Of a stretch of 39,796 bases of DNA, positions 23,131-39,411 are shown piece after piece. The notes under the pieces are model-generated. The model saw only the letters and a program-made list of their open reading frames with translations. It was not told the origin of the DNA and ran no database searches. The translations under genes and the position numbers were made by a program. How positions within the stretch are numbered: the first letter of the stretch is position 1; the number at the start of each line of letters is the position of its first letter. Source of the DNA: a virus; IMG/VR virus record IMGVR_UViG_3300037539_000019; one strand, given 5' to 3'.

Positions 23131-24411
23131 TTATTTCGGCTGGAACACCAGCCAGTCGGCGGCCTGGGCGTCGGTCGGCTCTCCCGCCCGTCTTGCTGCT
23201 GTCTTGTCGTGAAGCGCGGCGAAACCCTGGCCGTCGAGCCAGGCATGCCAGCGGGTCAGGGCGTCACGCTTCAGGGCCTCGCCATGGGTTTGCACATAGG
23301 TCGAATCGAGGTCACCGAGCGCGTGATTCAGCAGCAGCTTGCCGACCAGGCTGTCGATACCGATTTCGGCCCAGCGGGTACGGGCGAGCTTTCGCAGGTC
23401 GTGACTTGTCCACTCCCCCACCCCCAGGCGCTGGAAGATGTCGAAGGCTTTGCCACGGGCCAGCGGATGACCGGAACGGGTCGAAGACGGGAACAGATAG
23501 GCGCCGGTATAGCCCTTGCCCTTCTGCCATTCGCGATAGCGGGCCAGGAAGGCCACGACCTGGGGCGTCAGCGGCAACACATGGTCACGCTTGCCCTTGG
23601 TATCGCGCGCAGGAATGAACCACTCCCCGGCCATCAGGTTGACGTTTTGCCACTTGGCCAAGCGGGTTTCGGTTATCCGGGTGCCGTGGGCGAGCATCAG
23701 CACGGCGAAGGCGACATCGAGCGCGGCTTGCTGGAATTGATCAGCCCAGGACGCCAGCAGCTCAGCGACAGCCACATGACGCAGGCGCGCCCCCTTGGGC
23801 TTGATCTTGACCTTGCTGAAGTCGCCGAAGGTCACGCCGGCAATCGGGTCGGTCGCGATCAGGTCGAGGCGACGGGCACGACGAAAAGCCACCTTCAGCA
23901 CGCCGAACACGCCCTTGACGTGGGCCAGGCTGTACTCGGCTTGCAGGGGCACATATAGCAGCGCATCGAGCGCGGACTTGTTCAGGTCGGTCAGGCGAAC
24001 GGCGCCCAGGCGCGGCAGCAGATGGCGACGGATGGCCGACAGCTTGGTCGACTTGCGTTCGCCGGACAGGTGCCGGTCGATCTTCACCCGCTCGGCGTAC
24101 CAGTCCAGCACCTGGGCGACGGTATCCCAGGCGTCGACAGTGGCGGCGGCCAGCGGATCAGCCAGCAGACGGGCATGCACTTTAGGCAGGCCGTCGAGCA
24201 TGGCCTTAGCGCTCAAGTCTGGCCAGTTGCCCGCCTTCTTCCACTTCGCACCCTTGGCGTAACGGATCACAAACCAACTGCCCCGGGCGCGGTCGTGACG
24301 GTAACGGAAGCGCAGCGGGTGGCGGGGGTCTTTCAGCTCGGCGACATCACCGTCGGCGGCGTGCTTCTTAATGGCCGCGTCCGACAACTGGACTTGCAGG
24401 GTCTTGCGCAT
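23131..24411 (-). CDS. int: Tyrosine integrase, P4-type (N-terminal arm-binding DUF4102-like domain)
   Basis: 426 aa. N terminus LSDAAIKKHAADGDVAELKDPRHPLRFRYRH...GSWFVIRY is typical of P4-like integrases. The C-terminal catalytic region has HGTRITE...WTSHDLRK...LLNHALGDLDSTY. Confidence 0.9.
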   Translation of the reverse strand: MRKTLQVQLSDAAIKKHAADGDVAELKDPRHPLRFRYRHDRARGSWFVIRYAKGAKWKKAGNWPDLSAKAMLDGLPKVHARLLADPLAAATVDAWDTVAQVLDWYAERVKIDRHLSGERKSTKLSAIRRHLLPRLGAVRLTDLNKSALDALLYVPLQAEYSLAHVKGVFGVLKVAFRRARRLDLIATDPIAGVTFGDFSKVKIKPKGARLRHVAVAELLASWADQFQQAALDVAFAVLMLAHGTRITETRLAKWQNVNLMAGEWFIPARDTKGKRDHVLPLTPQVVAFLARYREWQKGKGYTGAYLFPSSTRSGHPLARGKAFDIFQRLGVGEWTSHDLRKLARTRWAEIGIDSLVGKLLLNHALGDLDSTYVQTHGEALKRDALTRWHAWLDGQGFAALHDKTAARRAGEPTDAQAADWLVFQPK

Positions 24412-24506
24412 GGTGCGGGCCTCGGCAAATGCCCGCAGGCGATGCCGGCGGGCGGCGTGGGTCTTTCTTCAGGCAAAGCGAACCCGTGACGCACGGGCGC
24501 GCCTAT

Positions 24507-24530
24507 TTAGCTAAATCGCTAATTTGCTAT
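24507..24530 (+). repeat. 8-bp-periodic box array A4 (TTAGCTAA ATCGCTAA TTTGCTAT)
   Basis: Three phased units. Intergenic, between the stop of ORF 24534..24992 and a small hairpin (CCCGTG-ACG-CACGGG, 24484-24498) upstream of int. Confidence 0.8.
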
Positions 24531-24533
24531 TGG

Positions 24534-24992
24534 TTAATGCGTGACGGGCTGTCGCTGCTCAATCGCCAAGGCCAGCTCGACAGGGGCGCGAACCGCATAG
24601 TTTCGGGCGACGCAGTCGAAAGCGCCGGAAAGCAAGTCGGCAGCAACGGGCAGACCGGCGAACGGGCAGCAGTTGACGGCGGGGCCAGGGCCGCGCGCCT
24701 CAAGATCGAACCCGCGCAGGCCGACCAGCCACCAAGCCAGCGCCATAGGGGTCAGCGGCTTGGCGAACATCAGGCAATGCACGCCCGGCGCCTGCCAGCT
24801 CCCGGCCAGGCTGTAGCCTTCAGCGCCACCCACGTCAGCGAAGCGCTCTTCGATCAGCTCCATGGCGGCAGCATCGAGCGGCAACAGCGACGCGCGGGTC
24901 GTCACCAGGCGCACGTCGAAGCCAAGGGCGGCACCGACGGCGGCCGTGTCCTGCCCCACGAAACCAGCAAACAACGGGTGAATCTTCATCAT
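24534..24992 (-). CDS. Hypothetical protein
   Basis: 152-aa ORF with an ATGA overlap to the Q-like gene. High GC3. Confidence 0.6.
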   Translation of the reverse strand: MMKIHPLFAGFVGQDTAAVGAALGFDVRLVTTRASLLPLDAAAMELIEERFADVGGAEGYSLAGSWQAPGVHCLMFAKPLTPMALAWWLVGLRGFDLEARGPGPAVNCCPFAGLPVAADLLSGAFDCVARNYAVRAPVELALAIEQRQPVTH

Positions 24993-25408
24993 GCCCCCAG
25001 GGTCTTCTCGATGGTTTCCCGCGCCTCTGCCAGCCGACGGCGGTAGGTACGCAAGCTGATCCCCAGGGCGTGGGCGTTTTCGAACTGGCCCACCCCGCGC
25101 GGGTCGTATCCTTCAATTCGGCGCCGCTCGGCCACCTGCCACCAGCCGGCGCCGTACTCCAGGCGCAGCACGTCGGCGCGCATGGGTTCAACGGCGAACA
25201 TGGCCACGACGGCCGCCTCGATCTTCGCTTCCAGGCTATCCGCCGGCTCGCTGGAACCGCCCGAGCCACCGAAGAAAATTTCGCCCTTGTTGTCGATCAG
25301 CTTGGCCAGCATCGAGCGGCCCGAACTGACCAGGGCGCCACCCTGAAAACACCACCGCGCCCACAGCTCAAGGGCGCCGTCTAAGTCGTTGCGTCCGCGC
25401 CTTGCCAT
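24989..25408 (-). CDS. Putative antitermination protein Q-like regulator
   Basis: 139 aa. LELWARW...sequence and the C-terminal HTH-like ALGISLRTYRRRLAEARETI recall the Phage_antitermQ family. Last regulatory gene of the early-left operon. Confidence 0.5.
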   Translation of the reverse strand: MARRGRNDLDGALELWARWCFQGGALVSSGRSMLAKLIDNKGEIFFGGSGGSSEPADSLEAKIEAAVVAMFAVEPMRADVLRLEYGAGWWQVAERRRIEGYDPRGVGQFENAHALGISLRTYRRRLAEARETIEKTLGA

Positions 25409-25417
25409 CCATCCCCC

Positions 25418-25633
25418 TTAGCCGCCGGCTTCGGGCGTCAGCTTGTGGCCGTTCTTCCGATCCTGACGACAGGCCGTAAACTTCAGATTGTTCGAACACA
25501 TGGGCAAGCCCAGGATAAACACCGCCCGCGCGCAGACCGAACAGCCCTTCGCGCGTATTTCCTGGGCCTCGACGATCCTGGCCGGGTCACCGTAGGCGTA
25601 ACCCGGCAGCGCCTGGCTTGGTTGCCTAGCCAT
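25418..25633 (-). CDS. Hypothetical Cys-containing small protein
   Basis: Track ORF trimmed to the ATG at 25633, which overlaps the upstream stop (ATGGCTAG). 71 aa with 4 Cys. Confidence 0.45.
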   Translation of the reverse strand: MARQPSQALPGYAYGDPARIVEAQEIRAKGCSVCARAVFILGLPMCSNNLKFTACRQDRKNGHKLTPEAGG

Positions 25634-26078
25634 CGGCCAGGCTCGACAGCGCGGCCAGGGCCAGCGGCGCACCGCCAGCAGACAAGCGAGCCAGCAGCAG
25701 CTCGGAAAGCGCCTCCAGCGGCTCGCGCACATGACGGAAACCCGCCATGCCATCCGTGACAATCGGGTCGCCGTGACGGATCACGACCAGCCCCGACGGC
25801 ATGCCGTAGACGTGCCAGACAGCGCCGCCACGACGGCGCACAAGCTCGGCCTCTTCTTCGGCCAGACAGTGAACCACCACCACCCCGCCCAGGGCGTTCG
25901 GGGCATCCTCCATGCCTTCCAGGGCGTCGGCCAGAATGCGCGCCCGGGTAGCCCCATATTCAGACTTGGGCGTCGCCTGGGCGAACGCCACAAGCTGCCC
26001 CTTGCCGGAGTCGACCAGGCGATCAGCAATCGCCACGCGTTCGGCGACAGTGCCGCCAGACAGTGCAATCAATAACAA
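25626..26078 (-). CDS. Hypothetical protein
   Basis: 150-aa ORF with high GC3. N terminus MLLIALSGG... is nucleotide-kinase-like but has no intact P-loop. Confidence 0.6.
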   Translation of the reverse strand: MLLIALSGGTVAERVAIADRLVDSGKGQLVAFAQATPKSEYGATRARILADALEGMEDAPNALGGVVVVHCLAEEEAELVRRRGGAVWHVYGMPSGLVVIRHGDPIVTDGMAGFRHVREPLEALSELLLARLSAGGAPLALAALSSLADG

Positions 26079-26100
26079 AGCATTCCCCTTGCGCCGGGCC

Positions 26101-26691
26101 TCACTGGCGGGCGCGCTCGATTTTGGTATTGCGCACAGTCTTCAAATGGTCATGCAGGGCGGCCGGTAACGGCGCCTCGCTTGCCTTAATCGCCAGCTCT
26201 ACGGCGGCTTCCGCTTCTTCAACAGTCACGTTCGTGGCACACCAGCGGCGGAATAGCTGCCGAGTGGCCGGGTCATGTGCCAGGTACGCCGGGCAATTCA
26301 GCTCAGCGATAAACCAATTGATCCACTGCTTATCCGTCGCGAACAGCACCGGCGCGCCCTCGACAATCGGCGCGGCGTCACTGGTGACCATGGCCGCCAG
26401 TTCGCCCAGCAGGGTCACGCGCAAGCGGCCGTCTTCGTTCGAACGATTCAGCACCCGGGCCAGCTCGCAATAAGCCAGGAACTCGGCGGCCGTTTCTTGG
26501 TTGCAGCCCACCGCGATCATGAAGTCACCCCAGGCGACTACCGCAGACGCGGGCGCGTCCGGCGTGCTCAGGTTTGCGACCAGCTCCACCAGCTTGACCA
26601 TGCGAGCAAAGCCCAGCAGGCCGAAGCGCTGTTCCAGCTTTCTCGAAATGACCAGCTCGGACAGACCAGCCGGAACCCTGAAACCACGCAT
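26101..26691 (-). CDS. Hypothetical early protein
   Basis: 196-aa ORF in the early-left operon. No family recognised. Confidence 0.6.
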   Translation of the reverse strand: MRGFRVPAGLSELVISRKLEQRFGLLGFARMVKLVELVANLSTPDAPASAVVAWGDFMIAVGCNQETAAEFLAYCELARVLNRSNEDGRLRVTLLGELAAMVTSDAAPIVEGAPVLFATDKQWINWFIAELNCPAYLAHDPATRQLFRRWCATNVTVEEAEAAVELAIKASEAPLPAALHDHLKTVRNTKIERARQ

Positions 26692-26707
26692 CGCAGACCC
26701 TCAATAA

Positions 26708-26971
26708 TCAGAACGGCAAACCGGCGATGCCGGGCAACTCAACAACAGGACGCGGCCAGCAACACACGCCACCTGTCGCCCTATGCGGGAACGGGTAGGC
26801 GTCACAGTGGCAAGTCGCCGAGCGCCAAGGCTTGGCATCTGCCCAGCGATCCAGCCGGCCGACCCGACTACAGGCCGGGCAGCGCGAGAACCCGGGGCGC
26901 CCCTTGAAGCGCTTGCCGCATTCCTTCGACGTGCAGCGACAGTGCTGGGGGCTAAGCCTTGAACTTCGCAC
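26708..26971 (-). CDS. Cys-rich (zinc-binding?) small protein
   Basis: 87 aa with a GTG start. Contains CRCTSKECGKRF...CPAC...CHCDAYPFPHRATGGVCCW. Confidence 0.5.
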   Translation of the reverse strand: MRSSRLSPQHCRCTSKECGKRFKGRPGFSRCPACSRVGRLDRWADAKPWRSATCHCDAYPFPHRATGGVCCWPRPVVELPGIAGLPF

Positions 26972-27188
26972 GCCCTTCCTCCAGCGCCCGCCAGAACGGG
27001 TTATAGATGCCGTTGAAATCGACGCGGCCGCCGCTCTTTTTCACGATGTTCAGCGCCGAACGAAACGACGGCATCCGCTCGAAACGGCGCCACGAATCCA
27101 CCGTCCGGCGCTTCTCCCCCAGCAGCTCGGCAGCGGCGGCGGGGCCGTCGCTGGTCGAAAGGCTGTCAATCCAGGGGTTCAGTTCCAC
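26952..27188 (-). CDS. Cro-like HTH regulator (start uncertain)
   Basis: Divergent from the CI-like gene. HTH-like AAELLGEKRRTVDSWRRFERMP. The first 27 codons of the track ORF (to 27269) are AT-rich and cover the operators, so the GTG at 27188 is preferred. Confidence 0.55.
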   Translation of the reverse strand: MELNPWIDSLSTSDGPAAAAELLGEKRRTVDSWRRFERMPSFRSALNIVKKSGGRVDFNGIYNPFWRALEEGRAKFKA

Positions 27189-27205
27189 AGTAAATCCGTT
27201 ATTAA

Positions 27206-27225
27206 CAGTATTCGTGTAAATACTG
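27206..27225. promoter_or_regulatory. Operator-like palindrome CAGTATT-cgtgta-AATACTG
   Basis: 7-bp perfect arms in the cI/cro divergent region. Confidence 0.5.
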
Positions 27226-27257
27226 GCCACGGCTTCACGTATTTGCAAGCTGTTTTT

Positions 27258-27282
27258 AGTGTTATTCACACTTTGCGTGTAT
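27258..27282. promoter_or_regulatory. Overlapping operator-like palindromes (AGTGTtattcACACT; TCACACTTTGCGTGTAT)
   Basis: Read directly. The 17-mer at 27266-27282 matches 13/17 with the 28030-28046 palindrome. Confidence 0.55.
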
Positions 27283-27327
27283 ATTCCTGACTAGGTAACT
27301 CCCCCATACACCCCTTCAGGAACCTCA

Positions 27328-27987
27328 ATGTCTGACATCCGCAAGAAGATCGGCGCGCGCCTGAAGTCGTGCCGCGCAGCGAAGGGCTGGACGTTCAACG
27401 AGACGGCGGCGCACCTGTCGGCGATCAGTGGGCAAAAGATCATCCCGTCGCGTTATGGCAACTGGGAACTAGCGATCAACACGCCGCCGCTCGAAATGCT
27501 GATCGCCCTGGGCGCGCTCTTCGGCAAGCCACCGGCCTACCTGGGCGCCATCAGCGACGACGACGGCACCGCACCCGAGGCCGGGCGCTTCACCGTGCCC
27601 GCCCTGTCCACTATCCCGACCGCCAGCGGCACCGCCGACCTGGGCGAAGACTTCTATGCACCGCGCATAACCTGGCTCGACGAAATCAAGCTCGACAAGG
27701 GCAAGATGCTGCTTATGAGCGCGCCCGACGACAGCATGGGCGGCGTGATCGAGCAAGGCGACCCGGTCATGCTCGACCTTAGCGTCACCAACGTGACGCG
27801 TGACGACATATTCGCCATCATGGTCGGCGACCGGCCTTGGTTGCGCTGGATCAAGCAACAGCTCGACGGCACCTATAGCATCCAGGCCGAAGCCCGCGAC
27901 CACTACCCCGACCAGGTCATGACCCCGGGCGAACTGGCCAAGCTGCGAATCCTCGGCCGCGTCAAGCTGATTACACACGTCCGCTAA
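27328..27987 (+). CDS. CI-like repressor (N-terminal HTH, C-terminal S24 LexA-type peptidase)
   Basis: 219 aa. HTH is WTFNETAAHLSAISGQKI. S24 features are DDSMGGVIEQGDPVMLD and a downstream Lys (RWIKQQ). Divergent from the Cro-like gene. Confidence 0.85.
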   Translation: MSDIRKKIGARLKSCRAAKGWTFNETAAHLSAISGQKIIPSRYGNWELAINTPPLEMLIALGALFGKPPAYLGAISDDDGTAPEAGRFTVPALSTIPTASGTADLGEDFYAPRITWLDEIKLDKGKMLLMSAPDDSMGGVIEQGDPVMLDLSVTNVTRDDIFAIMVGDRPWLRWIKQQLDGTYSIQAEARDHYPDQVMTPGELAKLRILGRVKLITHVR

Positions 27988-27995
27988 AAACTATA

Positions 27996-28018: not shown

Positions 28019-28029
28019 GCACACTCGAT

Positions 28030-28384: not shown

Positions 28385-28837
28385 ATGCAGGCAGAAATGG
28401 AAATCCAGGGCGAAGACGTTGTCGGCGTCCCAGGCCAAGCGCTCACCTGGCGCGAATTGCGTGTCTTAGTCGGCCTCGCCGATGGCGAGAACCCCAACAC
28501 CATCGCGGCCGCAATCAACGCCGATAAGGTCGCGGTGCGCTACATAGAAGCCAGCATCAAGGCCAAGCTCGGCGCCAAGACTCACCCCCACATGATCGCC
28601 CGAGGCTTTACCCTCGGCGTCTTGTTTCCGCGCGCCCTATGCGTGCTGCTTGCCCTGGCATGCGTCGCCGAAAGCGACTTCGACGCCGTGCGCAACCGCA
28701 CCCCCAGCCGCTCGCGCGCCCCTTCCAGCCTGACCCGACTGACCCGTGCCGGCGCCGGCAGCAGTCGCGGCGGCCACCGCAGCACCTCCAGCAGCACCGC
28801 CATCGCCGCGCGCGGCGGCTTGGTCATCTTTAGCTAA
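28385..28837 (+). CDS. LuxR/GerE-type HTH protein with a hydrophobic segment and a Ser/Arg-rich tail
   Basis: Track ORF trimmed to the ATG at 28385. LTWRELRVLVGLADGENPNTIAAAINADKVAVRYIEASIKAKLG fits the GerE HTH. This is followed by ALCVLLALACVA and an S/R-rich tail. High GC3 throughout. Confidence 0.6.
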   Translation: MQAEMEIQGEDVVGVPGQALTWRELRVLVGLADGENPNTIAAAINADKVAVRYIEASIKAKLGAKTHPHMIARGFTLGVLFPRALCVLLALACVAESDFDAVRNRTPSRSRAPSSLTRLTRAGAGSSRGGHRSTSSSTAIAARGGLVIFS

Positions 28838-28861
28838 TTCGCTAATTCAATAATTCGCTTG
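28830..28861 (+). repeat. 8-bp-periodic box array A5 (TTAGCTAA TTCGCTAA TTCAATAA TTCGCTTG), upstream half of the parA operator
   Basis: Four phased units. The last one overlaps the -35 of the parA promoter. Confidence 0.85.
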
Positions 28862-28886
28862 CACTGCGCGCCCGCGCGCTTATACT
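28859..28886 (+). promoter_or_regulatory. parA promoter (TTGCAC - 16 nt - TATACT)
   Basis: Sigma70-like hexamers read directly. Sandwiched between arrays A5 and A6. Confidence 0.55.
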
Positions 28887-28896
28887 CTGCGCACAG

Positions 28897-28920
28897 TTAG
28901 CTAATTCGCTAATTCTCGCA
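28897..28920 (+). repeat. 8-bp-periodic box array A6 (TTAGCTAA TTCGCTAA TTCTCGCA), downstream half of the parA operator
   Basis: Three phased units between the -10 and the AAGGAG ribosome-binding site of parA. Confidence 0.85.
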
Positions 28921-28934
28921 AAGGAGTTAAGCCC

Positions 28935-29573
28935 ATGGGTTACAAGATCGGTTTCGGCTCGCAGAAGGGCGGCGTCTGGAAATCCACCCTCGCCCGCGCA
29001 CTCGGCACGGCGTTCGCCGCCAATGACTGGTCGGTGAAAATCGCCGACCTCGATACCAAGCAAGGCACCTGCACCGCCTGGCAACAGCGCCGACTGCGCA
29101 ACGGCATCACGCCAGACGTGCCCGTCCAGATGTTCGGCAACGTGGCCACCGCCATCAGCAAGGCCGGCGACGCTGACCTGTTGATCTTCGACGGCGCCCC
29201 GCACGCCAGCACCGAGACGGTGGAAATCGCCAAGGCATGCGACTTGATGATCCTGCCGACCGGCCTGTCGGTCGACGACCTAGAACCGACCGTCACCCTG
29301 GCCAACACCCTGGCCGACAAACACGGCATCGAGTCGCGCCGCATCGTCTTCGCCCTGTGCAAAGCCACCAGCACCGCCGAGGTGCAGGCCGCGCGCGAGT
29401 ACCTGGGCAAAACCCGCTTTGCCACCCTCGACGGCTCCATCCAGCACAAGCCCGCCTATAGCCGCGCGCTGGACGCCGGCCAATCGCTGATCGAAACGCC
29501 GTACAAGTCGCCGCGCGAACAGGCCATGCAGGTCGTACAGTCGGCCATCGCCAAATTCGAAGAACTGATTTAA
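28935..29573 (+). CDS. parA: ParA/ParF-type partition ATPase (type Ib, small ParA)
   Basis: 212 aa. Deviant Walker A region GSQKGGVWKST. Overall resemblance to ParF-like ATPases. AAGGAG lies 8 nt upstream. Confidence 0.85.
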   Translation: MGYKIGFGSQKGGVWKSTLARALGTAFAANDWSVKIADLDTKQGTCTAWQQRRLRNGITPDVPVQMFGNVATAISKAGDADLLIFDGAPHASTETVEIAKACDLMILPTGLSVDDLEPTVTLANTLADKHGIESRRIVFALCKATSTAEVQAAREYLGKTRFATLDGSIQHKPAYSRALDAGQSLIETPYKSPREQAMQVVQSAIAKFEELI

Positions 29574-29576
29574 AAG

Positions 29577-29616
29577 ATTAGCGATTTAGCTAAATCGCTA
29601 TTATGCTAATGCACGA
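29577..29616 (+). repeat. 8-bp-periodic box array A7, including the 22-bp perfect palindrome TAGCGATTTAGCTAAATCGCTA
   Basis: ATTAGCGA TTTAGCTA AATCGCTA TTATGCTA ATGCACGA. It fills the parA-parG spacer. The palindrome is at 29579-29600. Confidence 0.85.
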
Positions 29617-30638: not shown

Positions 30639-30875
30639 TCACAGCTCAACGATAAACGACCGCACACCCAGGCCAGCGGCGAAGCGCTCCACGGCCGTCA
30701 GGCTTGCCCATACGCGCAGCGGCTCGCGCCTCGACCTCACCGGCAGCCAGTGCGCCCCCAGGCGAACGCTAAACGTCCAGCCCTGGCCACCCGGCCCGCG
30801 CCTGGCCAGGAACTCGCGCGCGGCGCCGCTGACGATCAGCGCTTGCAAGGCTTCCTCGGTATAAGCCTGCCTCAT
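30639..30875 (-). CDS. Hypothetical small protein
   Basis: 78 aa, last gene of the long minus-strand early operon. Confidence 0.55.
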   Translation of the reverse strand: MRQAYTEEALQALIVSGAAREFLARRGPGGQGWTFSVRLGAHWLPVRSRREPLRVWASLTAVERFAAGLGVRSFIVEL

Positions 30876-31891: not shown

Positions 31892-32142
31892 GCCGGCACC
31901 GCCAGCAGCGAAGCCCAGGCGCTGGAATTGACCACCCAAACGCCGCGATGGCCGGGGCCAATCAGCACGCGGGCGGCGTCCAGGGCATCGAGCAACACGG
32001 CGGCGCGCCGGCGGCCGATGTTGAAGCGCCGGGCCAGGCCGACCGGGCCGACGCGGTGGCGGGCAGCGGCAAAGCGCGCGGCCGCCGCATACAGCGGATC
32101 AGCGGCGCCGGGTGGCGGGGCGTAGAACGCGACGGGCATCAT
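31888..32142 (-). CDS. FtsK-gamma-domain-like winged-helix protein
   Basis: 84 aa. DPLYAAAARFAAARHRVGPVGLARRFNIGRRRAAVLLDALDAARVLIGPG resembles the FtsK gamma domain (LY..A...V......S.S.LQR...IGYNRAARL.D.ME..G.V). Confidence 0.5.
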   Translation of the reverse strand: MMPVAFYAPPPGAADPLYAAAARFAAARHRVGPVGLARRFNIGRRRAAVLLDALDAARVLIGPGHRGVWVVNSSAWASLLAVPA

Positions 32143-32438
32143 TGGGCCACCTCGACCAGATCGCTCAACACCTCACAGCGCGCAGCCGCGCGGGCGCGGA
32201 TATGCTCGCGCAGCTCGTCGTGCTGGTCGTCTGACAGCTCGCCATAGATATAAGCGGCCAGGGTCAGCGCATCGGCGCGCCACTCCAGCCGGGCGACGGA
32301 CTCGCCCCAGGCGGCCGACTCTATCAAGCCGAGCGTGTGCTTGATCTGTACGCCGACTTGCAGACCGTCCACCACGGTGGCCAGTGCCTCGGGTAGCTGC
32401 TGGCGACCTTGCGCGGTCGTCGATGGTGATTCGTTCAT
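32139..32438 (-). CDS. Hypothetical small protein
   Basis: 99 aa. ATGA-coupled. Confidence 0.55.
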   Translation of the reverse strand: MNESPSTTAQGRQQLPEALATVVDGLQVGVQIKHTLGLIESAAWGESVARLEWRADALTLAAYIYGELSDDQHDELREHIRARAAARCEVLSDLVEVAQ

Positions 32439-32526
32439 AGGTTCTCCAGGGTGTCGGGGTCTGCGTCAAACCAGCAGGCGGGGTAATGGTATGCCACTTG
32501 CCGGGGGTCTGGTAGCCGCCGAGCAT

Positions 32527-32549
32527 GAAAAAGCCGACCAGGGGTCGGC
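32527..32549 (-). terminator. Intrinsic terminator-like hairpin inside the early operon
   Basis: Minus strand reads GCCGACC-CCT-GGTCGGC followed by TTTTTC. Confidence 0.55.
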
Positions 32550-32594
32550 GTGTTGTGGGGGGCGATTTAACAATCTCTCCGTTATGCGTAGCGC

Positions 32595-32786
32595 TCAGCC
32601 CTCGGCGCGGTAACGCTCTTTCAGATACTCGGCCGTCGCTTCCGGGCCGCCGTGGCGCTTTACAAACGCATCCAGCGGCTCGGCGTCGCCGCAGTCGGTC
32701 AGCCGGAACGGGCAGCGAATTTCTACGGCACCGCTGTCATGGCGGGCGGTGATGAAGTTGGCGCCACTCTCAAACTCGATTTTCAT
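32595..32786 (-). CDS. Hypothetical small protein
   Basis: 63-aa ORF with high GC3. Confidence 0.5.
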   Translation of the reverse strand: MKIEFESGANFITARHDSGAVEIRCPFRLTDCGDAEPLDAFVKRHGGPEATAEYLKERYRAEG

Positions 32787-32871
32787 GGGGTCGGTTCCTA
32801 CCGGCTGCGCCGGGCTTGGTTGTGGGTGCCCCTCGGTCTGTCGGGGGCGGGTTCCTTTCAGGTCGTGACGG

Positions 32872-33354
32872 TCACGCGTCTTTTGTCGGGCGGCGGCGCA
32901 GGGCTCGCAACACGGCCGCTTCTAGTGCTTCCTTGCCGCCGTAGTCGTGGCGCTGCGAATAGCTGGCGTACAGCTTGCGCAGAGGCAGCAACAGCTCTTC
33001 GATTTCATGGGCGCGCTTGGCGTCGGCCTCCAGCTTGTCGCTACGCTGTTCGGCCTCGGCGGCCTCGTCACGGACGCGCCAATCTATCCGCGCCGGCTCG
33101 TCAGACCACTGGCCTTGATAGGTGGCTTCGCCCAGCTTGCGCACCTGTTCATCTGAAAAGCTCGCGCCCCGGTAGATACCGCCGACCGCCTTGCCCTTCA
33201 GGGTTCGATATTCAAACAGCATGCGTTCGCCCAGGGCGCCGTCGACGATAACAATCACCTCGGCGCCCATCTTGCCGCTCTTCAGCAGGCGGCGGCCTGT
33301 ATACACATAATCGCGCGCGACGAACTCGGCGGCGCCTTCTTCTTTCTTGGTCAT
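32872..33354 (-). CDS. Hypothetical protein
   Basis: 160-aa ORF. Confidence 0.6.
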   Translation of the reverse strand: MTKKEEGAAEFVARDYVYTGRRLLKSGKMGAEVIVIVDGALGERMLFEYRTLKGKAVGGIYRGASFSDEQVRKLGEATYQGQWSDEPARIDWRVRDEAAEAEQRSDKLEADAKRAHEIEELLLPLRKLYASYSQRHDYGGKEALEAAVLRALRRRPTKDA

Positions 33355-33369
33355 CGGTGCGGGTTCCTT

Positions 33370-33615
33370 TCAGTTCGGGCGGTCGTCCGGGTTCTCTAGC
33401 TCCCAAAAAGCCCAGATCGTCGCGCGGGCCAATTGGTTATGCGTGGCCAAATCCAGCTCGCCACGGCCGCGCGCATAACACAGCTCGACCAGGGCTTCGA
33501 CGTGCAAGTCGTCGGCCTCTTTCAAGGTCGGCGCGGCGCGCATCGCTTCAATGCGGGCCGCTGCCTGGCGGCGCGCTTCGGCCAGCACGTCAGGGCTTGG
33601 GGTCTGCTCGATCAT
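33370..33615 (-). CDS. Hypothetical small protein
   Basis: 81-aa ORF. Confidence 0.55.
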   Translation of the reverse strand: MIEQTPSPDVLAEARRQAAARIEAMRAAPTLKEADDLHVEALVELCYARGRGELDLATHNQLARATIWAFWELENPDDRPN

Positions 33616-33627
33616 GGGGCGGGTTCC

Positions 33628-33909
33628 TCAGTGCGTCACGTCGATGGCGAACACCTCGACCGGATCGGGGCCGAAGTGCGGGTGTGTGATGGTCGTCAGC
33701 CGGCAGCCCTTCCAGGGCAACACAAGGCGCCGGGCGCTGTCGCCGCGCTTCGGATAACCGCGCGTCAGCTCGATACGGTCGAAGCGCTGCCCCTCCAGCC
33801 GGCGCCGCCAGTAGGGCGTCACCTGGCGGAACTCTTCGGGCTTGGTGCCCGCCTTGATCGCGTCGAAATACTCGCCCTTCAGGGCCAGGGTTAGGGTTCG
33901 CATATTCAC
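33628..33909 (-). CDS. ASCH-domain-like protein
   Basis: 93 aa. TLALKGEYFDAIKAGTKPEEFR...YW resembles the ASCH/PUA-like pattern. Confidence 0.6.
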   Translation of the reverse strand: MNMRTLTLALKGEYFDAIKAGTKPEEFRQVTPYWRRRLEGQRFDRIELTRGYPKRGDSARRLVLPWKGCRLTTITHPHFGPDPVEVFAIDVTH

Positions 33910-35234
33910 CCCCGATAGTCCGTCGACAGGCCCGCGTCGCGCAGGCGCTGCTCAAACACCTTGAGCGCCGCCATTGAGCCGTTGCGCTCTCTTTCGAGCA
34001 ATTCGTTTTCGCTGCGCAGCCGTTCCGCTTCGCGGCGAGCATCGGCGGCGCGCTGCATATCAGCATTGGCCACGCGCACCGTTTCGCGCACGCGATGCAG
34101 AGCGTCCAGGCAGACGACCACCGGGCCACGCTCAGCCAGCAAGGCCGCCATATCCTCGGGCAGTTGCTCGACGCCCTGCCATTGGCCGTCGACCTGATCG
34201 GCGCCAATCGCGCGCAAGGCGCGCTCGGCAGCCTCGGCGCGGGCCTGCCACTGGCGGGCCTCCCGCTCGGCCGCTTGCTGCTCGCGCTGCGCGTGCCGCT
34301 TGCCGGCCTCGGCGTTCCAGCGCATAGAGGCCAGTGGGCGGGCTTCGGCCGGGCGCCAGTCGGCACCAGGCGCGATCTTGCGCAGCAAAGCCAACTGCTC
34401 GGCGGCTGCGTCGCCGGTGGGGTTGTTGTGTTCGTTGAACAGGTCGAGGCCGTTGCGCAGAATTTTGCGCTCGGAAGCGGTCAGCATGACCGGCTTTAGC
34501 CCCTCTTTTTCCTTCAACTCGCGCAGCTTGTCGCGGCGGCGCTTCTGCCGCTCGGCACCGCTCAAGGGCTTTTTCGGCTCGGGCTGGTCGCCGAACATGG
34601 CCAGTTGTCCGTCACGCGTCACGCCTGCCAGCACGTCGACCAGCCAGGCCGGGCGCTTCTCGATCCACCGCAAATCCTCTTTCTTGATCGGCGTCAGCCC
34701 TTCGGCTGCAATCTGCGCGGCAATCTCGGCGCGCACCGCCTGTTCAAGCGTGCGGCCCATATGGTCGGTGACAGTCAGGTAAACGCCTCGGTATCCGGTC
34801 GGGCTGATAAACGGCTTATTGAAGTCCACCGCCGTCGCGTCGAAGCCCGGCGCCGAGCGCAGCCCCTGGCATTCGTATTTGACCAGCACGCGCACCCCGT
34901 CGACCTCGACCAGAAATTCGCCGTCCTGGCCCCAGTGCGGCACCTGGCCAGGCTTGGCCACATGCTGGGCATCGAGCACGCGCCCGGGGCGGGTGTCGTC
35001 GCCACGGCAGCCGAAGAACGTGCCGCCGTTCAGCTTGTAGACAATGGCGTCATGCTCAAGGGTGGTCGCCGCGCGAGCACCTTCATCGCCGGCGATGATC
35101 GCGTCGTTATAGATCGCGCGCAGGCGGCCGGCGCGGGCGTGCATCGCCTCGATGTCATCCGGCAGGCTGGCCAGCATGGCCAGGAACTCGGGCCGCTCTT
35201 CGCGCTCCAGGGGCTTGGCTTTTTTCTTCGCCAT
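33906..35234 (-). CDS. Large early protein of unknown function (globular N half, coiled-coil C half)
   Basis: The track ORF runs to 35252. The ATG at 35234 has GGAG 8 nt upstream. About 442 aa. The C-terminal 150 aa are Arg/Glu/Ala/Gln-rich heptad-like sequence. Confidence 0.65.
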   Translation of the reverse strand: MAKKKAKPLEREERPEFLAMLASLPDDIEAMHARAGRLRAIYNDAIIAGDEGARAATTLEHDAIVYKLNGGTFFGCRGDDTRPGRVLDAQHVAKPGQVPHWGQDGEFLVEVDGVRVLVKYECQGLRSAPGFDATAVDFNKPFISPTGYRGVYLTVTDHMGRTLEQAVRAEIAAQIAAEGLTPIKKEDLRWIEKRPAWLVDVLAGVTRDGQLAMFGDQPEPKKPLSGAERQKRRRDKLRELKEKEGLKPVMLTASERKILRNGLDLFNEHNNPTGDAAAEQLALLRKIAPGADWRPAEARPLASMRWNAEAGKRHAQREQQAAEREARQWQARAEAAERALRAIGADQVDGQWQGVEQLPEDMAALLAERGPVVVCLDALHRVRETVRVANADMQRAADARREAERLRSENELLERERNGSMAALKVFEQRLRDAGLSTDYRG

Positions 35235-35294
35235 CGTTCGCACTCCAGTCATGGCGCAGCCTCAATGCCAGGCCATGACTAGAATTCTACACAC

Positions 35295-35342
35295 TTAGCT
35301 AATTCGCGCAATAGCTAATTAGCATATTTGCTAACTAGCTAA
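35295..35342 (+). repeat. 8-bp-periodic box array A8 (six units: TTAGCTAA TTCGCGCA ATAGCTAA TTAGCATA TTTGCTAA CTAGCTAA)
   Basis: Longest array. Intergenic, overlapping the stop of the Rha-like gene. Confidence 0.85.
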
Positions 35343-36357
35343 GGCGTGCCGAAATGCGGGTCAGGCAAGCGTCCATGATGGCGGGCAACGCCCTGTCGGG
35401 GGCATGCAGTCTCAGCAGCTCGGTCAGGCGCTCGCTGTCCGCCAGGTCGACCACCACCGCGCCGGTCGGAACCGCCTTTAGTTGCGGCTGTCCGCCGGCG
35501 TCGATGCTCATAAGCCAGCGCTTATTGGCAACGATCAGGGCGGCCATGTTGTCGGCGATACGCTGTTCGGCCGCGTGATCCCATTGAGGCCGAACGCCGC
35601 CAGCGGCGTCCACCGCCTGCCGGCAACTGGTGAAGTAGTCCATGGCGAGGGCGCGGGCGTCACGCATAACGGGGCCGAACGAAACCGCCGGGAAGGGGCC
35701 GCCAGAAACGCCCGGCAGCGCAGCGGCCAGCCACTCGCGGAACGGCTCGGCGCGATCCTGCTGCGCCCGGCGCAGCGCATCGAGCACGGAAGGCCACGCC
35801 AGCATTTGCAGCGAACGCCCGCCAGCTTCTACGCGGGTAATCCACCCTCGATCCTGGCGGCGGGTAATGCGGTTGGCGCTGTCGAAGCCGAGAATGCGCG
35901 CCAGTACCGTCGCGCCAAACCAATAGGCGCCGTCGATTCGCGCAACTGGCAGGGCGTGGGCGCCATAGCTCAACTGGGAAAACTCGACGACGGCGGCCGG
36001 GGCCTCGACCGGCCGGGCGGCCAACTGCTCGGCCATCCAATTGAAGGCGTCGATATAGGCTTCCTTGACTCGCGCCGCCTTGGCGCCGGTGAAGCCCATC
36101 ACCAGAAAGACAAACCCGTCCTTGGTCATTTCATAGAACGGCACTTCACGCCGAACCGCCCCAGCGGCGCGGGCTTGAGCCGTGGCCGCAAAATTGCGGG
36201 CACGGAATTCGGGCGAACAGTCCAGGGTGCGGACGCGGCGCAAAACGTCGTCGTGCCGCTTTCCGAAGGCTTCGGCAACTTTCAGGGAGGTCGTGCGGGG
36301 CTGGCCGGCGACGGCGGTAACGAACTGGCGGGGGTCAAGCGTAGCAATAGCGGTCAT
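35335..36357 (-). CDS. Rha-family phage regulatory protein / antirepressor-like
   Basis: 340 aa. N terminus ...TTSLKVAEAFGKRHDDVLRRVRTL...FYEMTKDGFVFLVMGFTGAKA fits the Rha family. A second BRO/KilAC-like segment follows. Confidence 0.7.
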   Translation of the reverse strand: MTAIATLDPRQFVTAVAGQPRTTSLKVAEAFGKRHDDVLRRVRTLDCSPEFRARNFAATAQARAAGAVRREVPFYEMTKDGFVFLVMGFTGAKAARVKEAYIDAFNWMAEQLAARPVEAPAAVVEFSQLSYGAHALPVARIDGAYWFGATVLARILGFDSANRITRRQDRGWITRVEAGGRSLQMLAWPSVLDALRRAQQDRAEPFREWLAAALPGVSGGPFPAVSFGPVMRDARALAMDYFTSCRQAVDAAGGVRPQWDHAAEQRIADNMAALIVANKRWLMSIDAGGQPQLKAVPTGAVVVDLADSERLTELLRLHAPDRALPAIMDACLTRISARLS

Positions 36358-36501
36358 GGCGGAATCTCTGCGTTAGGGGAAGAACCCGCACGCCATCGAC
36401 CAAGATGGCGGGCGAAGCTGGGCGGGTTGGTCGACCGGACGCAGGGCCGGCAGGGCGTAAGCCCTCCCACCCAGCCCCACCCATAAAGGCAGAGCCGAGC
36501 T

Positions 36502-36538
36502 GCGGACACAAAAAAACCGCTATAAGCGGCGTGTCCGC
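36502..36538 (-). terminator. Terminator-like nested hairpin in the 430-bp leader upstream of the Rha-like gene
   Basis: Minus strand reads GCGGACAC-G-CCGCT-TAT-AGCGG-TTTTTTT-GTGTCCGC. The inner stem plus T7 run looks like an intrinsic terminator, and the outer 8-bp stem offers an alternative fold. Confidence 0.45.
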
Positions 36539-36721
36539 TGCGTTACCGGGCGACCAAACCCGACTGCCGATTTTGCGACAGCGGGCCGACCTTAATCCCA
36601 GCACCTTTTGACTGTCAATCAAAAGAGGCCCCCACACCCTGAAGACAGCAGGCGCAGGCATCGGATTAGCTCCGGTAATGGCCTTGGCGTAACGCCCGGC
36701 CGTGCGGCGCATTTTACACAC

Positions 36722-36753
36722 TTAGCTAATTCGCACAATAGCTAATTCGCAGC
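36722..36753 (+). repeat. 8-bp-periodic box array A9 (TTAGCTAA TTCGCACA ATAGCTAA TTCGCAGC)
   Basis: Four phased units in the divergent intergenic region. Bases 36715-36747 are 32/33 identical to 35288-35320. Confidence 0.85.
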
Positions 36754-36830
36754 AAGTCGCGACCGGAAGTTTTCGCGCGCGGCGGCACATGGCCATAATG
36801 CCCACTGGACAACCAGAGGAACCAAGCGCC

Positions 36831-37331: not shown

Positions 37332-37349
37332 CCCCACCCACCAGAAAGC

Positions 37350-37611: not shown

Positions 37612-38029
37612 AAAGCCGCCCAGGAAGGCCGACAACGCCCGACGGCCTTCCAGGCTGCCATGGTGTGGCTTTCCGCTTTTATCGCTCCAGGCGAGCGCAG
37701 AGGCGCCCAGGATCGACGAAAGAGGCAAGGCCCACCCTTGACCTGTCCGCTGGCGACGCGTAGCGGCGCGGCCGTAGGCCAGGCGCGTGAAGGCGCGAAA
37801 CGCCGACGCACGTTGGCACAGGTACGGCGCGGACTTCCTCGGCGTGCAGCAACTGGAACGGGCCGGGTTCAGGACTGCGCGCAGGTGCGGCCGCGCGGCC
37901 ACGTCCCGCCCTGGCGTAGCCAGGAAGTGCGGGCGGCAACTTTGCAGCCGGTACGGCTGCCTATAGAAAGCCACTCGGCTTGCCGAGGCATTAAAACAGG
38001 GGCTATCCCGCTGGCGGGGTAGACCTACA

Positions 38030-38300
38030 GATTCTCTTTCAGAGAAAAGGCAGAAGCACAGGGGCCACTTAAAAAATTCTAAGGACACCTAAATTTATAC
38101 CAAAACACTTAATTTCAGGCAGAACCACGGGCGCGCCCTGGCGGGAACGATCGAGGCGCTGGAATGGGCGGCGGGTGACGCTGGAAGGGGTCGGAAATGC
38201 CCCGGACGGGGCCAAGATGGCGCCGCGCGGCAAGGCGCGGCCACGGGCTAAGCCCCGCTCGATGGCAGGGCTAGAAGGCAGGGCGGGGCGTTGTAGACGG
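38030..38300. other. Candidate vegetative/plasmid origin downstream of repA
   Basis: An AT-rich stretch of about 50 bp (38068-38117) in GC-rich DNA, with CACTTAA twice. Direct repeats CGCTGGAATGGG / CGCTGGAAGGGG lie 22 bp apart (38157, 38179), and GGCAGGGC occurs twice (38264, 38277). It sits immediately 3' of the RepA-like gene, as in IncFII replicons. Confidence 0.4.
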
Positions 38301-39272
38301 CTATTCGTCTTGGCGGGATCGTTCCCACTCGGTAAAGGTGGGGAACTCGCGCATGACGCGGCGGGCGATGTCGCGCGCGGACAGGTCAGGCTGTCGCTTG
38401 GCTAGGTCGGCTTGATAGGCCAACAGCTCGGCCTGATACACGTCGCGGCCGGTGGCCTTCAGGCGGGCGGCCTGCCGGCGATTGCCCAGGGCGAAGGTCT
38501 GGACGCCGTTTTCGCCCTGGCTTCGGCGCAGGCTGTCGCGGGCGGCGGCCGCGTCCGACTTGGTCGGATGCTCGGCGCGGTAGCCGCGCCGTAGTTTCTT
38601 CAGTTGGTTCGAACAGTAGGTGCGGAAGCGCTCCAGGGCCTCGCATGAGACGGCGCCCAGGGCGATCAGGAAATGGGGGTTTACGCGCTTGATGGCAGGC
38701 CGCGCGCGCTTGCTGCCGTCGGGCTTCTCTTCGTACTGCAAATGCACGTCGATGGCGCCGGCCTTGCGCAGCCGGCGGAACGCCCGCCAGAACCTGGGCG
38801 ACGGTTCGTCGTCTTCCTCGGGGGCGGCCTTCTTCTTCAGCAGGCCAGCCACGGCGGCCAGCTCGGTGCAGCTTCTCGGGATGAAGCCGCCGTCAGGCTT
38901 CGGCACGCCAACGCGCAGCGAGGCAAATTCAGTCATCAGCAGAATGGCACGCATGACCAGCACTTCAGCGGCGCGCGCTTCCGAACGGTTCTTGCGTGGG
39001 TCGCCCGACTTGTTGCGGCGGCCGTTCAGGTTAGCCAGGCTCGGCAGGGTCGCCAGCGGGGCGTCATAGTAGAGCTTGGCCGCTTCCATCAGCTTGCGGA
39101 TGGTGTGCGGAATGCCCGCCATCCAGTCAGGATCACGGAACAAGTGAAACTCGGGCCTGTTCGGATTGTGGCCGCAGCGGTTGCCCGTGCCCAGGTTCTC
39201 CCCGGGGTACGGGTACGGCATGCGCCCCCACATAACGGAAGGCCGCCCAAGCATGGGCGTTGCGTCGGTCAT
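38301..39272 (-). CDS. repA: Plasmid-type replication initiator, IncFII RepA family-like
   Basis: 323 aa. NPNRP...IRKLMEAAKLYY, AEVLVMRAILLMTEFASLRVGV...ELAAVAGL and RFWRAFRRLRKAGAIDVHLQYEE...NPHFLIALG align by eye with remembered R100/R1 RepA blocks. Basic Arg-rich C terminus. Confidence 0.65.
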   Translation of the reverse strand: MTDATPMLGRPSVMWGRMPYPYPGENLGTGNRCGHNPNRPEFHLFRDPDWMAGIPHTIRKLMEAAKLYYDAPLATLPSLANLNGRRNKSGDPRKNRSEARAAEVLVMRAILLMTEFASLRVGVPKPDGGFIPRSCTELAAVAGLLKKKAAPEEDDEPSPRFWRAFRRLRKAGAIDVHLQYEEKPDGSKRARPAIKRVNPHFLIALGAVSCEALERFRTYCSNQLKKLRRGYRAEHPTKSDAAAARDSLRRSQGENGVQTFALGNRRQAARLKATGRDVYQAELLAYQADLAKRQPDLSARDIARRVMREFPTFTEWERSRQDE

Positions 39273-39310
39273 CAGCGTCTTTCCCTGCTAAGCAACGGGC
39301 TTGCTTAGAA

Positions 39311-39411
39311 GGTGACCGGCCGCTAAACTCTGACCTTGTCGCTGGTCGCAGAGCTTTAGCTTCTACGGTCACCGAAAACCCTGGGGTTGGCGCCCCGGGG
39401 TTTTCTTTTTT
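39311..39411 (+). ncRNA. Candidate antisense (CopA-like) RNA opposite the repA leader
   Basis: A 63-nt imperfect stem-loop (GGTGACCG...CGGTCACC, 39311-39373) is followed by a strong plus-strand intrinsic terminator (AAAACCCTGGGG-TTGGCG-CCCCGGGGTTTT then CTTTTTT, 39375-39411). No plus-strand gene ends here. A possible promoter is TTGCTT-17-TAAACT at 39301-39329. Confidence 0.35.

Follow-up and report, generated by a model that had tools for sequence, protein, structure and literature searches.

A Probable Circular Phage-Plasmid With a Conserved Integrase-Like Recombinase and Putative Partition-Protein Arrays Dispersed Over Its Genome

The virus record IMGVR_UViG_3300037539_000019 of IMG/VR raises the question of what an integrase-like tyrosine recombinase does in a temperate phage that appears equipped for replication and segregation as a plasmid. 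Phage-plasmids are stated to be typically without integrases (PMC12977533), and an initial annotation made from the letters alone had regarded the joint presence of rep, par and integrase genes in this DNA as exceptional. The complete stretch of 39,796 nucleotides (the window) was analyzed. It represents a complete, circularly closed genome, that of a temperate myovirus with cos-type packaging and a Pseudomonas-type host, and the virus is probably a phage-plasmid kept as a low-copy circle in lysogens. The gene combination turned out to be the conserved backbone of a large group already deposited in the databases. As to the recombinase, the comparisons point to an action on the phage's own circular DNA (multimer resolution or monomer–multimer interconversion) instead of chromosomal insertion, a tentative proposal in which we place slightly less than even confidence.

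The first 127 bases of the window are identical to positions 39670–39796 (100% identity, repeat finder). Such a terminal overlap is the usual sign of an assembler closing a circle, so that the real unit comprises 39,669 bp and the genome is closed, as had been proposed. Contigs from other samples encoding an identical Rep or integrase protein have lengths of 39,659–39,699 bp. The G+C content is 61–69% in 2-kb windows, and a compact gene set was picked out by the G+C content at third codon positions (GC3). All open reading frames (ORFs) named in the initial annotation, including those for the RepA-like, ParA, ParG-like and integrase proteins, were recovered at the same coordinates with coding-type GC3 values (0.80–0.86). 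The temperate-phage set is complete, with virion, packaging, lysis and repressor genes all present; sheath, tube, baseplate, tape measure, GpA terminase, lysozyme and S24 repressor were each found (Table 1), which bears out the earlier description as a complete temperate myovirus. The reported absence of a protelomerase also held, since every ORF of more than 300 amino acids (aa) could be assigned, the 448-aa ORF being KlcB-like. A tRNA gene scan of the 39,796 bases detected none, and a near-identity DNA search of positions 20000–39796 against GenBank phages gave no match.

The plasmid state is indicated indirectly by relatives with the same architecture, which are closed circular plasmids in complete genomes: pPL-38ph of Pseudomonas lundensis (NZ_CP062157.2, 38.4 kb), pWP8-S18-ESBL-11_1 of Aeromonas veronii (37.2 kb) and a 45.9-kb plasmid of Halomonas qaidamensis. 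For these three, the gene order was inspected in full. It is the same as in the window, namely Rep, ParA and a ribbon-helix-helix (RHH) protein, S24 repressor, early operon, a recombinase of approximately 425 aa, lysis genes, GpA terminase and tail, although the protein identity is only 39–71%. The RHH protein and its presumed DNA box differ from those of the window, the box being of the GATATC type in pPL-38ph and of the AACGA type in Aeromonas. Some related plasmids have a siphovirus tail instead, and the accessory genes are not the same; pPL-38ph, for instance, carries HicAB. The recombinase lineage was detected on 35 PLSDB plasmids, all typed as non-mobilizable; the remaining 36–48-kb plasmids (Edwardsiella, Halomonas, Delftia and P. 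aeruginosa) were grouped by recombinase match, size and non-mobilizable typing. Besides these 35 plasmids, the backbone group includes phage PARCL1pr, numerous IMG/VR contigs and the Ahp2-like phages of Aeromonas, in which an integrase, a ParA-like protein and the Rep homologue are encoded together. The element is a probable phage-plasmid within this sizeable group, which is undescribed as far as the literature search could find; the search yielded no publication dealing with pPL-38ph or PARCL1pr. The Rep homologue went unrecognized in the publication on Ahp2, whose authors noted the integrase and the ParA-like gene and did not find any lysogens (PMC8001559). A circular phage-plasmid has been verified in Vibrio crassostreae at 3–10 copies per chromosome (PMC13230959); its identity with the K303-type phage that shares the recombinase lineage could not be confirmed. 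Full homology of Vibrio phage K303 to the verified circular phage-plasmid TG34 was considered and could not be established: K303 shares the recombinase lineage, its ParA-like protein is weakly similar, and its candidate rep ORF is unrelated.

The initial annotation had suggested looking for the element in host assemblies, either as a separate circle or as an insertion flanked by att repeats. Relatives were found in the first form, as the closed plasmids described above, and no att-flanked insertion was found. An integrated copy of the backbone was present in none of the collections searched (IMG/VR, PLSDB, a genome collection and large Vibrio contigs). In the scan of the genome collection, a single close relative came to light in the isolate Pseudomonas sp. 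SJZ074; this 39.9-kb contig shows synteny with the window, and its end falls within terL, not in host DNA. Eleven contigs, none longer than 50 kb, encode the exact integrase, with phage genes on both sides at every place shown. Recombinase homologues of at least 55% identity lie on contigs of up to approximately 42 kb, except for two of 51.9 and 76.6 kb, and for the larger of these (L018) no host junction was seen in the 18 kb inspected.

These data bear on the possibility that the element is an ordinary integrating prophage, with rep and par genes that are remnants or function in lytic replication and with a circular contig that is merely virion or excised DNA. The window stems from metagenome-type assemblies, cos phages circularize, and the Ahp2-like relatives have been described simply as lytic or temperate phages (PMC8001559). 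However, closed plasmids of identical architecture exist in complete genomes of isolates, the element has an intact partition cassette, and the bona fide conjugative plasmid pP27494_2 has the replicon unit in common with it. In addition, the putative centromere arrays and the protein presumed to bind them evolve in concert, a sign of selection on segregation that speaks against an ordinary prophage. We consider this explanation very improbable.

The replicon of the predicted phage-plasmid is centered on RepA. In a tblastn search against PLSDB, RepA matched 179 plasmid records (98 from Pseudomonas and 52 from Aeromonas), many of them annotated as "plasmid replication protein repA". The best plasmid match (70.5% identity) is located on pP27494_2, a 30-kb conjugative-type plasmid of P. 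antarctica, on which the homologue is the sole gene annotated as encoding a replication protein. A profile search of 1.84 billion representatives yielded more than 1,000 clusters of the RepA family, and for most homologue clusters in the large protein database the longest contig measures 34–44 kb, which corresponds to the size of the element. RepA itself matched no Pfam or NCBIfam model, and its only PHROGs match was PHROG 20951 (function not known). The IncFII_repA model PF02387 was matched by none of 38 close and none of 57 distant family members, whereas NF040977 (RepA_IncFII_LM) was matched below its cut-off by 26 of the 57 distant members. Three members scored individually reached 18.7–22.3 bits versus a cut-off of 70 (best member E-value 2.4e-11); the genuine RepA of R1 scored 271.6 bits. 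Aligned with hhalign, the family gave 68% probability, an E-value of 4.7e-5 and 131 colinear columns with an IncFII RepA alignment, a low-diversity template, and 2% probability with a single-sequence IncFII template. The AlphaFold model of RepA has a predicted local distance difference test (pLDDT) score of 84.5. Its PDB matches were insignificant and gave no structural assignment to initiators of the RepE/pi type. Since RepA misses the curated cut-offs and has no PDB fold match, its initiator function rests on annotation, plasmid distribution and remote homology. By sequence comparison, RepA is probably a remote relative of the IncFII/IncL-M initiators; it is not a member by curated criteria. 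Of the "IncFII-RepA-like initiator with an origin-like region" described previously, the plasmid-type Rep and the remote IncFII/IncL-M likeness were retained, and a curated IncFII_repA match was not obtained. Putative similarities to IncFII and IncL-M replicons include the colinear winged-helix core, the candidate origin downstream of repA and the predicted countertranscript to the leader. The RepA of the window differs by an additional conserved N-terminal GNRCGH motif, and a tap-like leader peptide was not identified in the window.

Rep-family members of 50–57% identity were also found at the edge of chromosomal elements resembling integrative conjugative elements (ICEs) in Vibrio maritimus and V. 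vulnificus (L103 and L104). These ICE-like elements carry TraH, TraG and Integrase_1, and the position of the rep genes at their edges indicates that the initiator family is used by integrative conjugative elements as well. An interpretation of large Vibrio contigs with the RepA family as integrated phage-plasmids was rejected, because they represent such ICE-like chromosomal elements.

Conservation around repA pointed to a candidate origin. The first approximately 200 nucleotides (nt) past the repA stop codon are diverged from pP27494_2, and the following approximately 220 nt (38112 to about 37890) are more strongly conserved than repA; the block is recognizable in pPL-38ph, too. Three TTARGTG boxes with an exact spacing of 20 bp (38066–38112) lie within the sole AT-rich patch of this block, and the box triplet was matched once in the window and not at all in shuffled sequences. 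The conserved block further contains an invariant hairpin, AATGCCTCGGCAAGCCGAG, at 37974–37992. Judged by homology and conservation, RepA would act on an origin approximately 190–410 bp downstream of its own gene. Its synthesis would probably be limited by a countertranscript of approximately 77 nt antisense to the repA leader, which is predicted in the manner of CopA or RNAI. The promoter (TTGCTT at 39301–39306, N17, TAAACT at 39324–39329) is followed by a strong intrinsic terminator with a T-run on the strand opposite to the leader (39374–39405, terminator scan). Five replicons, which belong to three genera, have both the promoter and the hairpin, and four base pairs of the latter show compensated changes. 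No Rfam family covers the predicted countertranscript, and CopA was not matched.

The proposed type Ib-like ParA/ParG-like cassette was corroborated by a small ParA, a putative RHH protein and box arrays that co-vary with the latter. ParA matched phrog_164 (4.6e-30), NF041546 (3.7e-26, under the cut-off) and CbiA (above the cut-off), and it covers positions 2–197 of the 203 in the ParA_partition profile. The 92-aa protein encoded downstream has a disordered basic N-terminal tail with the motif KPPRG..GEPP (KPPRR in most relatives), followed by a strand-helix-helix C-terminus of presumed RHH type. Its hidden Markov model matches were weak (56B_RHH 1.3e-3; PDB 2kel, E 0.17), and no significant match to ParG or omega models was obtained. 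The repeat finder revealed arrays of a unit with 8-bp period, (A/T)TT(A/C)GCTAA, in the window. The pattern GCTAAnnnGCTAA occurs 17 times as compared with 1.05 expected matches, and two of the arrays flank the parA promoter (Table 1).

A comparison of 12 relatives showed that the boxes co-vary in sequence with the RHH protein's beta-strand, which is the DNA-reading part of this fold. The strand KLVDLGFKV is associated with the box GCTAA, LVPxNFKV with CGTTAA and EKVPLNFRV with AACGCTA, and a different RHH type occurs with GATATC. This strong comparative evidence suggests that the 92-aa protein is a ParG/omega-like centromere binder and autoregulator. Segregation would be accomplished by the small ParA together with the RHH protein bound to the GCTAA arrays at the parA promoter. 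The cassette resembles ParF/ParG of TP228 and delta/omega of pSM19035 in the small ParA, in the RHH protein with a flexible basic N-tail and in the short boxes every 7–8 bp around the parA promoter that would serve as centromere and operator; like those of omega, the sites are also found at several other promoters. It differs from both systems in the dispersal of the arrays into the tail-gene cluster and to the region upstream of the recombinase. In the A. veronii plasmid (L012), whose box is AACGA, 18 array matches were found versus 1.2 expected. Its arrays (8646–8674, 22755–22775, 29682–29694 and 32860–32888) include three positions syntenic with those of the window: upstream of the recombinase, at the tube/chaperone junction and at the tape-measure/gpU junction. 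Because the dispersal is conserved with a different box, it is presumably functional. The presence of the same arrays at five other synteny-conserved places suggests that the RHH protein is also a global regulator or that several centromeres exist. The array at the c4-antirepressor operon (36720–36747) is situated in an 82-nt repeat shared with 35243–35324.

The recombinase matched PF00589 (2e-16) and phrog_1 (2.4e-45). Of the three profile families recommended in the initial annotation, ParA and Phage_integrase were thus recovered, IncFII_repA not. The invariant catalytic residues R245, H337, R340, H363 and Y372 are intact. Colinear orthologues with 40–85% identity are present in phage-plasmids of four genera, including Pseudomonas, Aeromonas and Halomonas. 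Only the catalytic domain was recognized by Pfam; the arm-domain models Arm-DNA-bind_3/DUF4102 gave no match even at E <= 1. The AlphaFold2 model (pLDDT 84.9) displays an N-terminal domain of a beta-sheet plus a helix, and the best Foldseek matches were full-length lambda Int and Tn1549 Int, with Xer and Cre ranking lower. The designation as a P4-type tyrosine integrase was correct with regard to the tyrosine recombinase, and its "P4-type" part depends on structure. As to the comparison with Cre, the enzyme is lambda-Int-like and not Cre-like.

With respect to its function, the distribution of the lineage, which is present on 165 phage records, is informative. The lambdoid Pseudomonas phages PseuP_224 and Solano encode a canonical integrase at the genome end and, in addition, a member of the lineage (approximately 46% identical) located directly after dnaB and before the late genes. 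Chromosomal relatives (approximately 52% identical) reside within 12.3-kb P4-like islands bounded by tRNA-Leu repeats. These islands have their own P4-type integrase and primase and contain no internal att copy, the recombinase of the window's lineage being the second one. The coexistence with a separate canonical integrase in lambdoid phages and P4-like satellites favors a non-integrative role. Among 80 IMG/VR loci, the 23 with at least 60% identity were accompanied by ParA in 14 cases and by a CI-like repressor in 15, most of the remaining loci of this tier having too little upstream flank for a judgment; in the tier of 46–55% identity, ParA was found at 2 of 57 loci. The gene is invariably the last of the early operon, with the late genes following directly, and an array of the RHH protein's boxes lies upstream of it in the window, L010, L018 and L012. 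The catalytically intact enzyme would most likely act on the phage circle, and chromosomal insertion would be less likely.

Two side observations concern the recombinase. A block of approximately 35 nt (GCG-TCACGG-TTCGCTTTGCCTGAAGAAA) just upstream of its start (24440–24500, minus strand) is kept in four elements (the window, L010, L018 and L020), the recombinases of which are only 63–85% identical; a role in translation, as part of the leader or in protein binding is conceivable. Some records of the backbone are near twice the unit length, such as L018 (JGI 3300044878, 76,588 bp) and NZ_CP085886.1 (81,985 bp, two recombinase copies). These records may represent dimers, whether genuine or introduced by assembly, and are relevant to the question of multimer resolution.

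A dual lifestyle, in which the element is usually a plasmid and a lambda-Int-type integrase inserts it at a chromosomal attB (e.g., a tRNA gene) in some hosts or under some conditions, would be in accordance with the three-domain fold and its arm-binding-type N-domain, the intact catalytic residues and the existence of chromosomal relatives. Phage-plasmid recombinases have been suggested to resolve dimers or to switch states, and alternation between states is allowed in the literature (PMC7969092). No integrated backbone copy was encountered, however, in any collection searched, and the bounding repeats of the chromosomal satellites belong to the other, P4-type integrase. Near int, no tRNA gene or fragment, no arm-type or attP-like repeats in the non-coding gaps and no host match were detected in the sequences in hand; the window has no detectable excisionase-like ORF, and a short-word BLAST against the chromosomal islands recovered only the cos-like block described below. 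We consider a dual lifestyle unlikely. Of the two options offered in the initial annotation, dual lysogeny was thus not supported, and reuse of the integrase is favored by the phages and satellites with a second recombinase.

The recombinase could also be an enzyme of the replication module, neither an integrase nor a maintenance resolvase, that takes part in initiation or termination or converts theta circles into packageable multimers during lytic growth. The gene overlaps the dnaB stop codon in Solano and follows dnaB in PseuP_224, and it is invariably the final gene of the early operon, the late promoter coming next. Packaging at cos requires multimers, as established for lambda. On the other hand, the recombinase gene has its own upstream RHH-protein array in the phage-plasmids, which suggests control in the plasmid state; a target site was not found, and we know of no tyrosine recombinase with such a role in replication, which counts against this explanation. 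It appears distinctly unlikely.

The proposed action on the phage's own circle as part of a plasmid lifestyle has to be weighed against several points. The modelled build is that of a conventional heterobivalent integrase and not of a two-domain Cre or Xer, which counts against a simple Cre analogy; no recombination site was identified for the enzyme, and relatives do exist in chromosomal islands. RepA falls short of all curated cut-offs (PF02387, TIGR03474 and NF040977), the PDB sequence-profile search and Foldseek returned only insignificant matches of winged-helix type, and genes of its family occur at the edges of the chromosomal Vibrio ICE-like elements. Finally, a circular metagenome contig could be explained by cos-joined virion DNA or by an induced replicative form as well.

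A more far-reaching proposal, which we regard as doubtful in its conjunction, is that the recombinase represents a new topology-managing class and, in phage-plasmids, is wired into the regulon of the RHH partition protein. If true, a phage enzyme at a fixed position before the late genes, in phage-plasmids as well as in P4-like satellites and in integrative lambdoid phages with an integrase of their own, would resolve or generate multimers of the replicating circle instead of integrating it in lysogeny. Plasmid segregation, recombinase expression and late-gene silencing would be coupled through the partition protein, arrays being present in the tail operon as well.

Table 1. Features of the window (strand: +, −, or a dot where no strand applies)
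Feature	Position	Strand	Basis
Terminal overlap	1..127	.	Identical to 39670-39796; circularization signature of assembler
Virion and packaging block	132..20541	−	PHROGs matches; Pfam on identical contigs
gpD (P2-like contractile tail)	132..1175	−	PHROGs/Pfam
gpX (P2-like contractile tail)	1185..1388	−	PHROGs/Pfam
gpU (P2-like contractile tail)	1391..1819	−	PHROGs/Pfam
Dispersed GCTAA array, tape-measure/gpU junction	1851..1886	.	Repeat finder; L012 counterpart 32860-32888
Tape measure	1873..4413	−	PHROGs/Pfam
Dispersed GCTAA array, tube/tail-chaperone junction	4862..4889	.	Repeat finder; L012 counterpart 29682-29694
Tail tube	4919..5431	−	PHROGs/Pfam
Tail sheath	5443..6585	−	PHROGs/Pfam
Fibre	7637..9337	−	PHROGs/Pfam
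Baseplate	9337..10832	−	PHROGs/Pfam
Major head protein (lambda-like head)	13400..14326	−	PHROGs/Pfam
S49 protease (lambda-like head)	14733..16142	−	PHROGs/Pfam
Portal, lambda type	16139..17758	−	PHROGs/Pfam
TerL, lambda GpA type	17967..20024	−	PHROGs/Pfam
TerS	19996..20541	−	PHROGs/Pfam
Candidate cos region upstream of terS	20580..20750	−	Block shared with P4-like satellites; function inferred
Lysis block	20916..22356	−	PF00959 on identical product; size and position
148-aa ORF, Rz-like candidate	20916..21362	−	Role inferred from size and position only
Lysozyme	21650..22165	−	PF00959 on identical product
Holin-sized ORF	22153..22356	−	Role inferred from size and position only
Late-control region ahead of lysis genes	22377..22557	−	Palindrome, promoter-like site, terminator-like hairpin
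126-aa ORF at late-regulator position	22558..22938	−	Gene call on identical contigs; Q-like by position only
Tyrosine recombinase, 426 aa, lambda-Int-type three-domain build	23131..24411	−	PF00589, phrog_1, AlphaFold2 model, Foldseek
GCTAA array, 8-bp period, directly upstream of recombinase gene	24505..24532	.	Repeat finder; also in L010, L018
Early operon, small ORFs without informative family match	24534..27269	−	GC3 and gene calls
Cro-position ORF, first of early operon	26952..27269	−	GC3 and gene calls
CI-like, LexA-type cleavable repressor, helix-turn-helix (HTH) and Peptidase_S24	27328..27987	+	Peptidase_S24 3.5e-7, HTH_31
150-aa LuxR/GerE-type HTH protein, between repressor operon and parA	28385..28837	+	GerE 8.9e-5, just under cut-off; gene call
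parA promoter TTGCAC-N17-TATACT, flanked by two GCTAA arrays; candidate centromere/operator	28828..28922	.	Repeats and promoter
GCTAA arrays flanking parA promoter	28828-28863 and 28895-28922	.	Repeat finder
ParA ATPase, small, 212 aa, no N-terminal HTH, type Ib-like	28935..29573	+	phrog_164, NF041546, CbiA
Third GCTAA array, spacer between parA and RHH gene	29576..29611	.	Repeat finder
ParG/omega-like putative centromere-binding protein, 92 aa	29638..29916	+	Architecture; beta-strand/box co-variation
Accessory operon	30639..35252	−	Lar-like and KlcB-like members
Lar-like restriction-alleviation protein	30872..31195	−	Lar_restr_allev 3.7e-8
KlcB-like 448-aa protein	33906..35252	−	KlcB_N, KlcB_3rd precomputed on identical product
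GCTAA array upstream of klcB-like operon	35293..35344	.	Repeat finder
Rha/Bro-type antirepressor	35335..36357	−	Phage_pRha 4e-26
P1-type C4 antisense RNA and a1/b1 target, upstream of antirepressor	36404..36595	−	Rfam
GCTAA array at c4-antirepressor operon promoter region	36720..36747	.	Repeat finder
Candidate origin	37890..38112	−	Conserved block, TTARGTG boxes, invariant hairpin
RepA, 323-aa winged-helix replication initiator (predicted)	38301..39272	−	Probable remote relative of IncFII/IncL-M RepA
Predicted ~77-nt countertranscript antisense to repA leader	39301..39412	+	Terminator scan and conservation

Of the CI/Cro/Q-like modules described initially, the CI-like repressor was substantiated by its Peptidase_S24 and HTH domains. 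The 126-aa ORF had no family match, so that the label "Q-like" reflects position and has no family model behind it. In the late-control region, a perfect palindrome at 22487–22518 (14-nt arms, 4-nt center) adjoins a TTGACA..TAGGCT promoter-like site on its upstream side, and a terminator-like hairpin (22377–22402) followed by a T-run is located in front of the lysis genes. The layout of ORF, palindrome, promoter and terminator resembles PR'/tR' of lambda. In the relative L010 (11869–11899), a palindrome is found at the same place with different arms, which are changed on both sides so that the symmetry is kept. The palindrome was considered as a lox-like recombinase target and rejected, since its arms differ in L010 although the two recombinases are 85% identical; more probably, it is bound by a late regulator with evolving specificity.

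A second immunity layer, absent from the initial annotation, was recognized in Rfam searches. The C4 antisense RNA (36404–36488) matched RF01695 with 59.4 bits (gathering threshold 45), and the a1/b1 target (36543–36595) matched RF03163 with 47.9 bits (gathering threshold 46.7); an overlapping isrK match was also reported. Together with the antirepressor gene, the predicted C4 RNA forms an immI-like module, and immunity would be exerted by the LexA-like CI repressor together with this P1-type module. In the accessory operon, the KlcB_N and KlcB_3rd domains are known from the kilC operon of IncP plasmids; with the Lar-like protein, they represent plasmid-style establishment genes in a phage.

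A block of approximately 200 nt at the candidate cos is common, with the same spacing, to the far end of the tRNA-Leu-bounded P4-like satellites in Pseudomonas chromosomes. The probable sharing of the cos block suggests that phages of the window's type are likely helpers of such satellites (L014, 3500–15800; L016, 3400–16300). The two satellites carry variable defence-like cargo, either SIR2_2 or DUF2971 and DUF4062.

Size and gene content had led to a proposed connection with the VP882/PhiHAP-1 group. Like VP882, PhiHAP-1 and VHML, which are myovirus phage-plasmids of approximately 38–42 kb with ParA, the window combines a myovirus with a ParA gene. In contrast, those phages encode a protelomerase, lack an integrase and exist as linear plasmids, whereas the window has no protelomerase and a lambda-Int-type recombinase, and its relatives are circular. 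The Rep of the VP882 group is unrelated to that of the window at the tblastn level. The sheath of the window is 41% identical to that of the telomere phages VP585/MAR versus 77% for Vibrio phage VPHZ6 and 56–58% for the Ahp2-like phages, which makes the connection a loose one.

The proposed phage-plasmid is similar to P1 in being a temperate myovirus with a low-copy circular plasmid state and a tyrosine recombinase that, as proposed here, would act on its own DNA, in the immI module with C4 antisense RNA and antirepressor, and in having regulator sites dispersed over the genome. It differs in genome size (39.7 kb vs. approximately 94 kb), in cos instead of headful packaging, and in a type Ib partition system with an RHH protein instead of the type Ia ParB. 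Its Rep is IncFII/L-M-like and not of the iteron type of P1 RepA, its recombinase is lambda-Int-like with an N-terminal domain as opposed to the two-domain Cre, and its main repressor is LexA-like.

[quoted passage not shown] A conventional-looking integrase can thus be a core gene of plasmid-state phages, which affects the classification of prophages, plasmids and phage-plasmids, the safety judgment of phages such as Ahp2 for therapy, and the decision where to seek a function for this widespread lineage of recombinases. Two features deserve further attention, namely the conservation of the recombinase and the dispersal of the partition-protein arrays, and the co-varying pairs of partition protein and array offer a testable model of a partition protein that may double as a genome-wide viral regulator.

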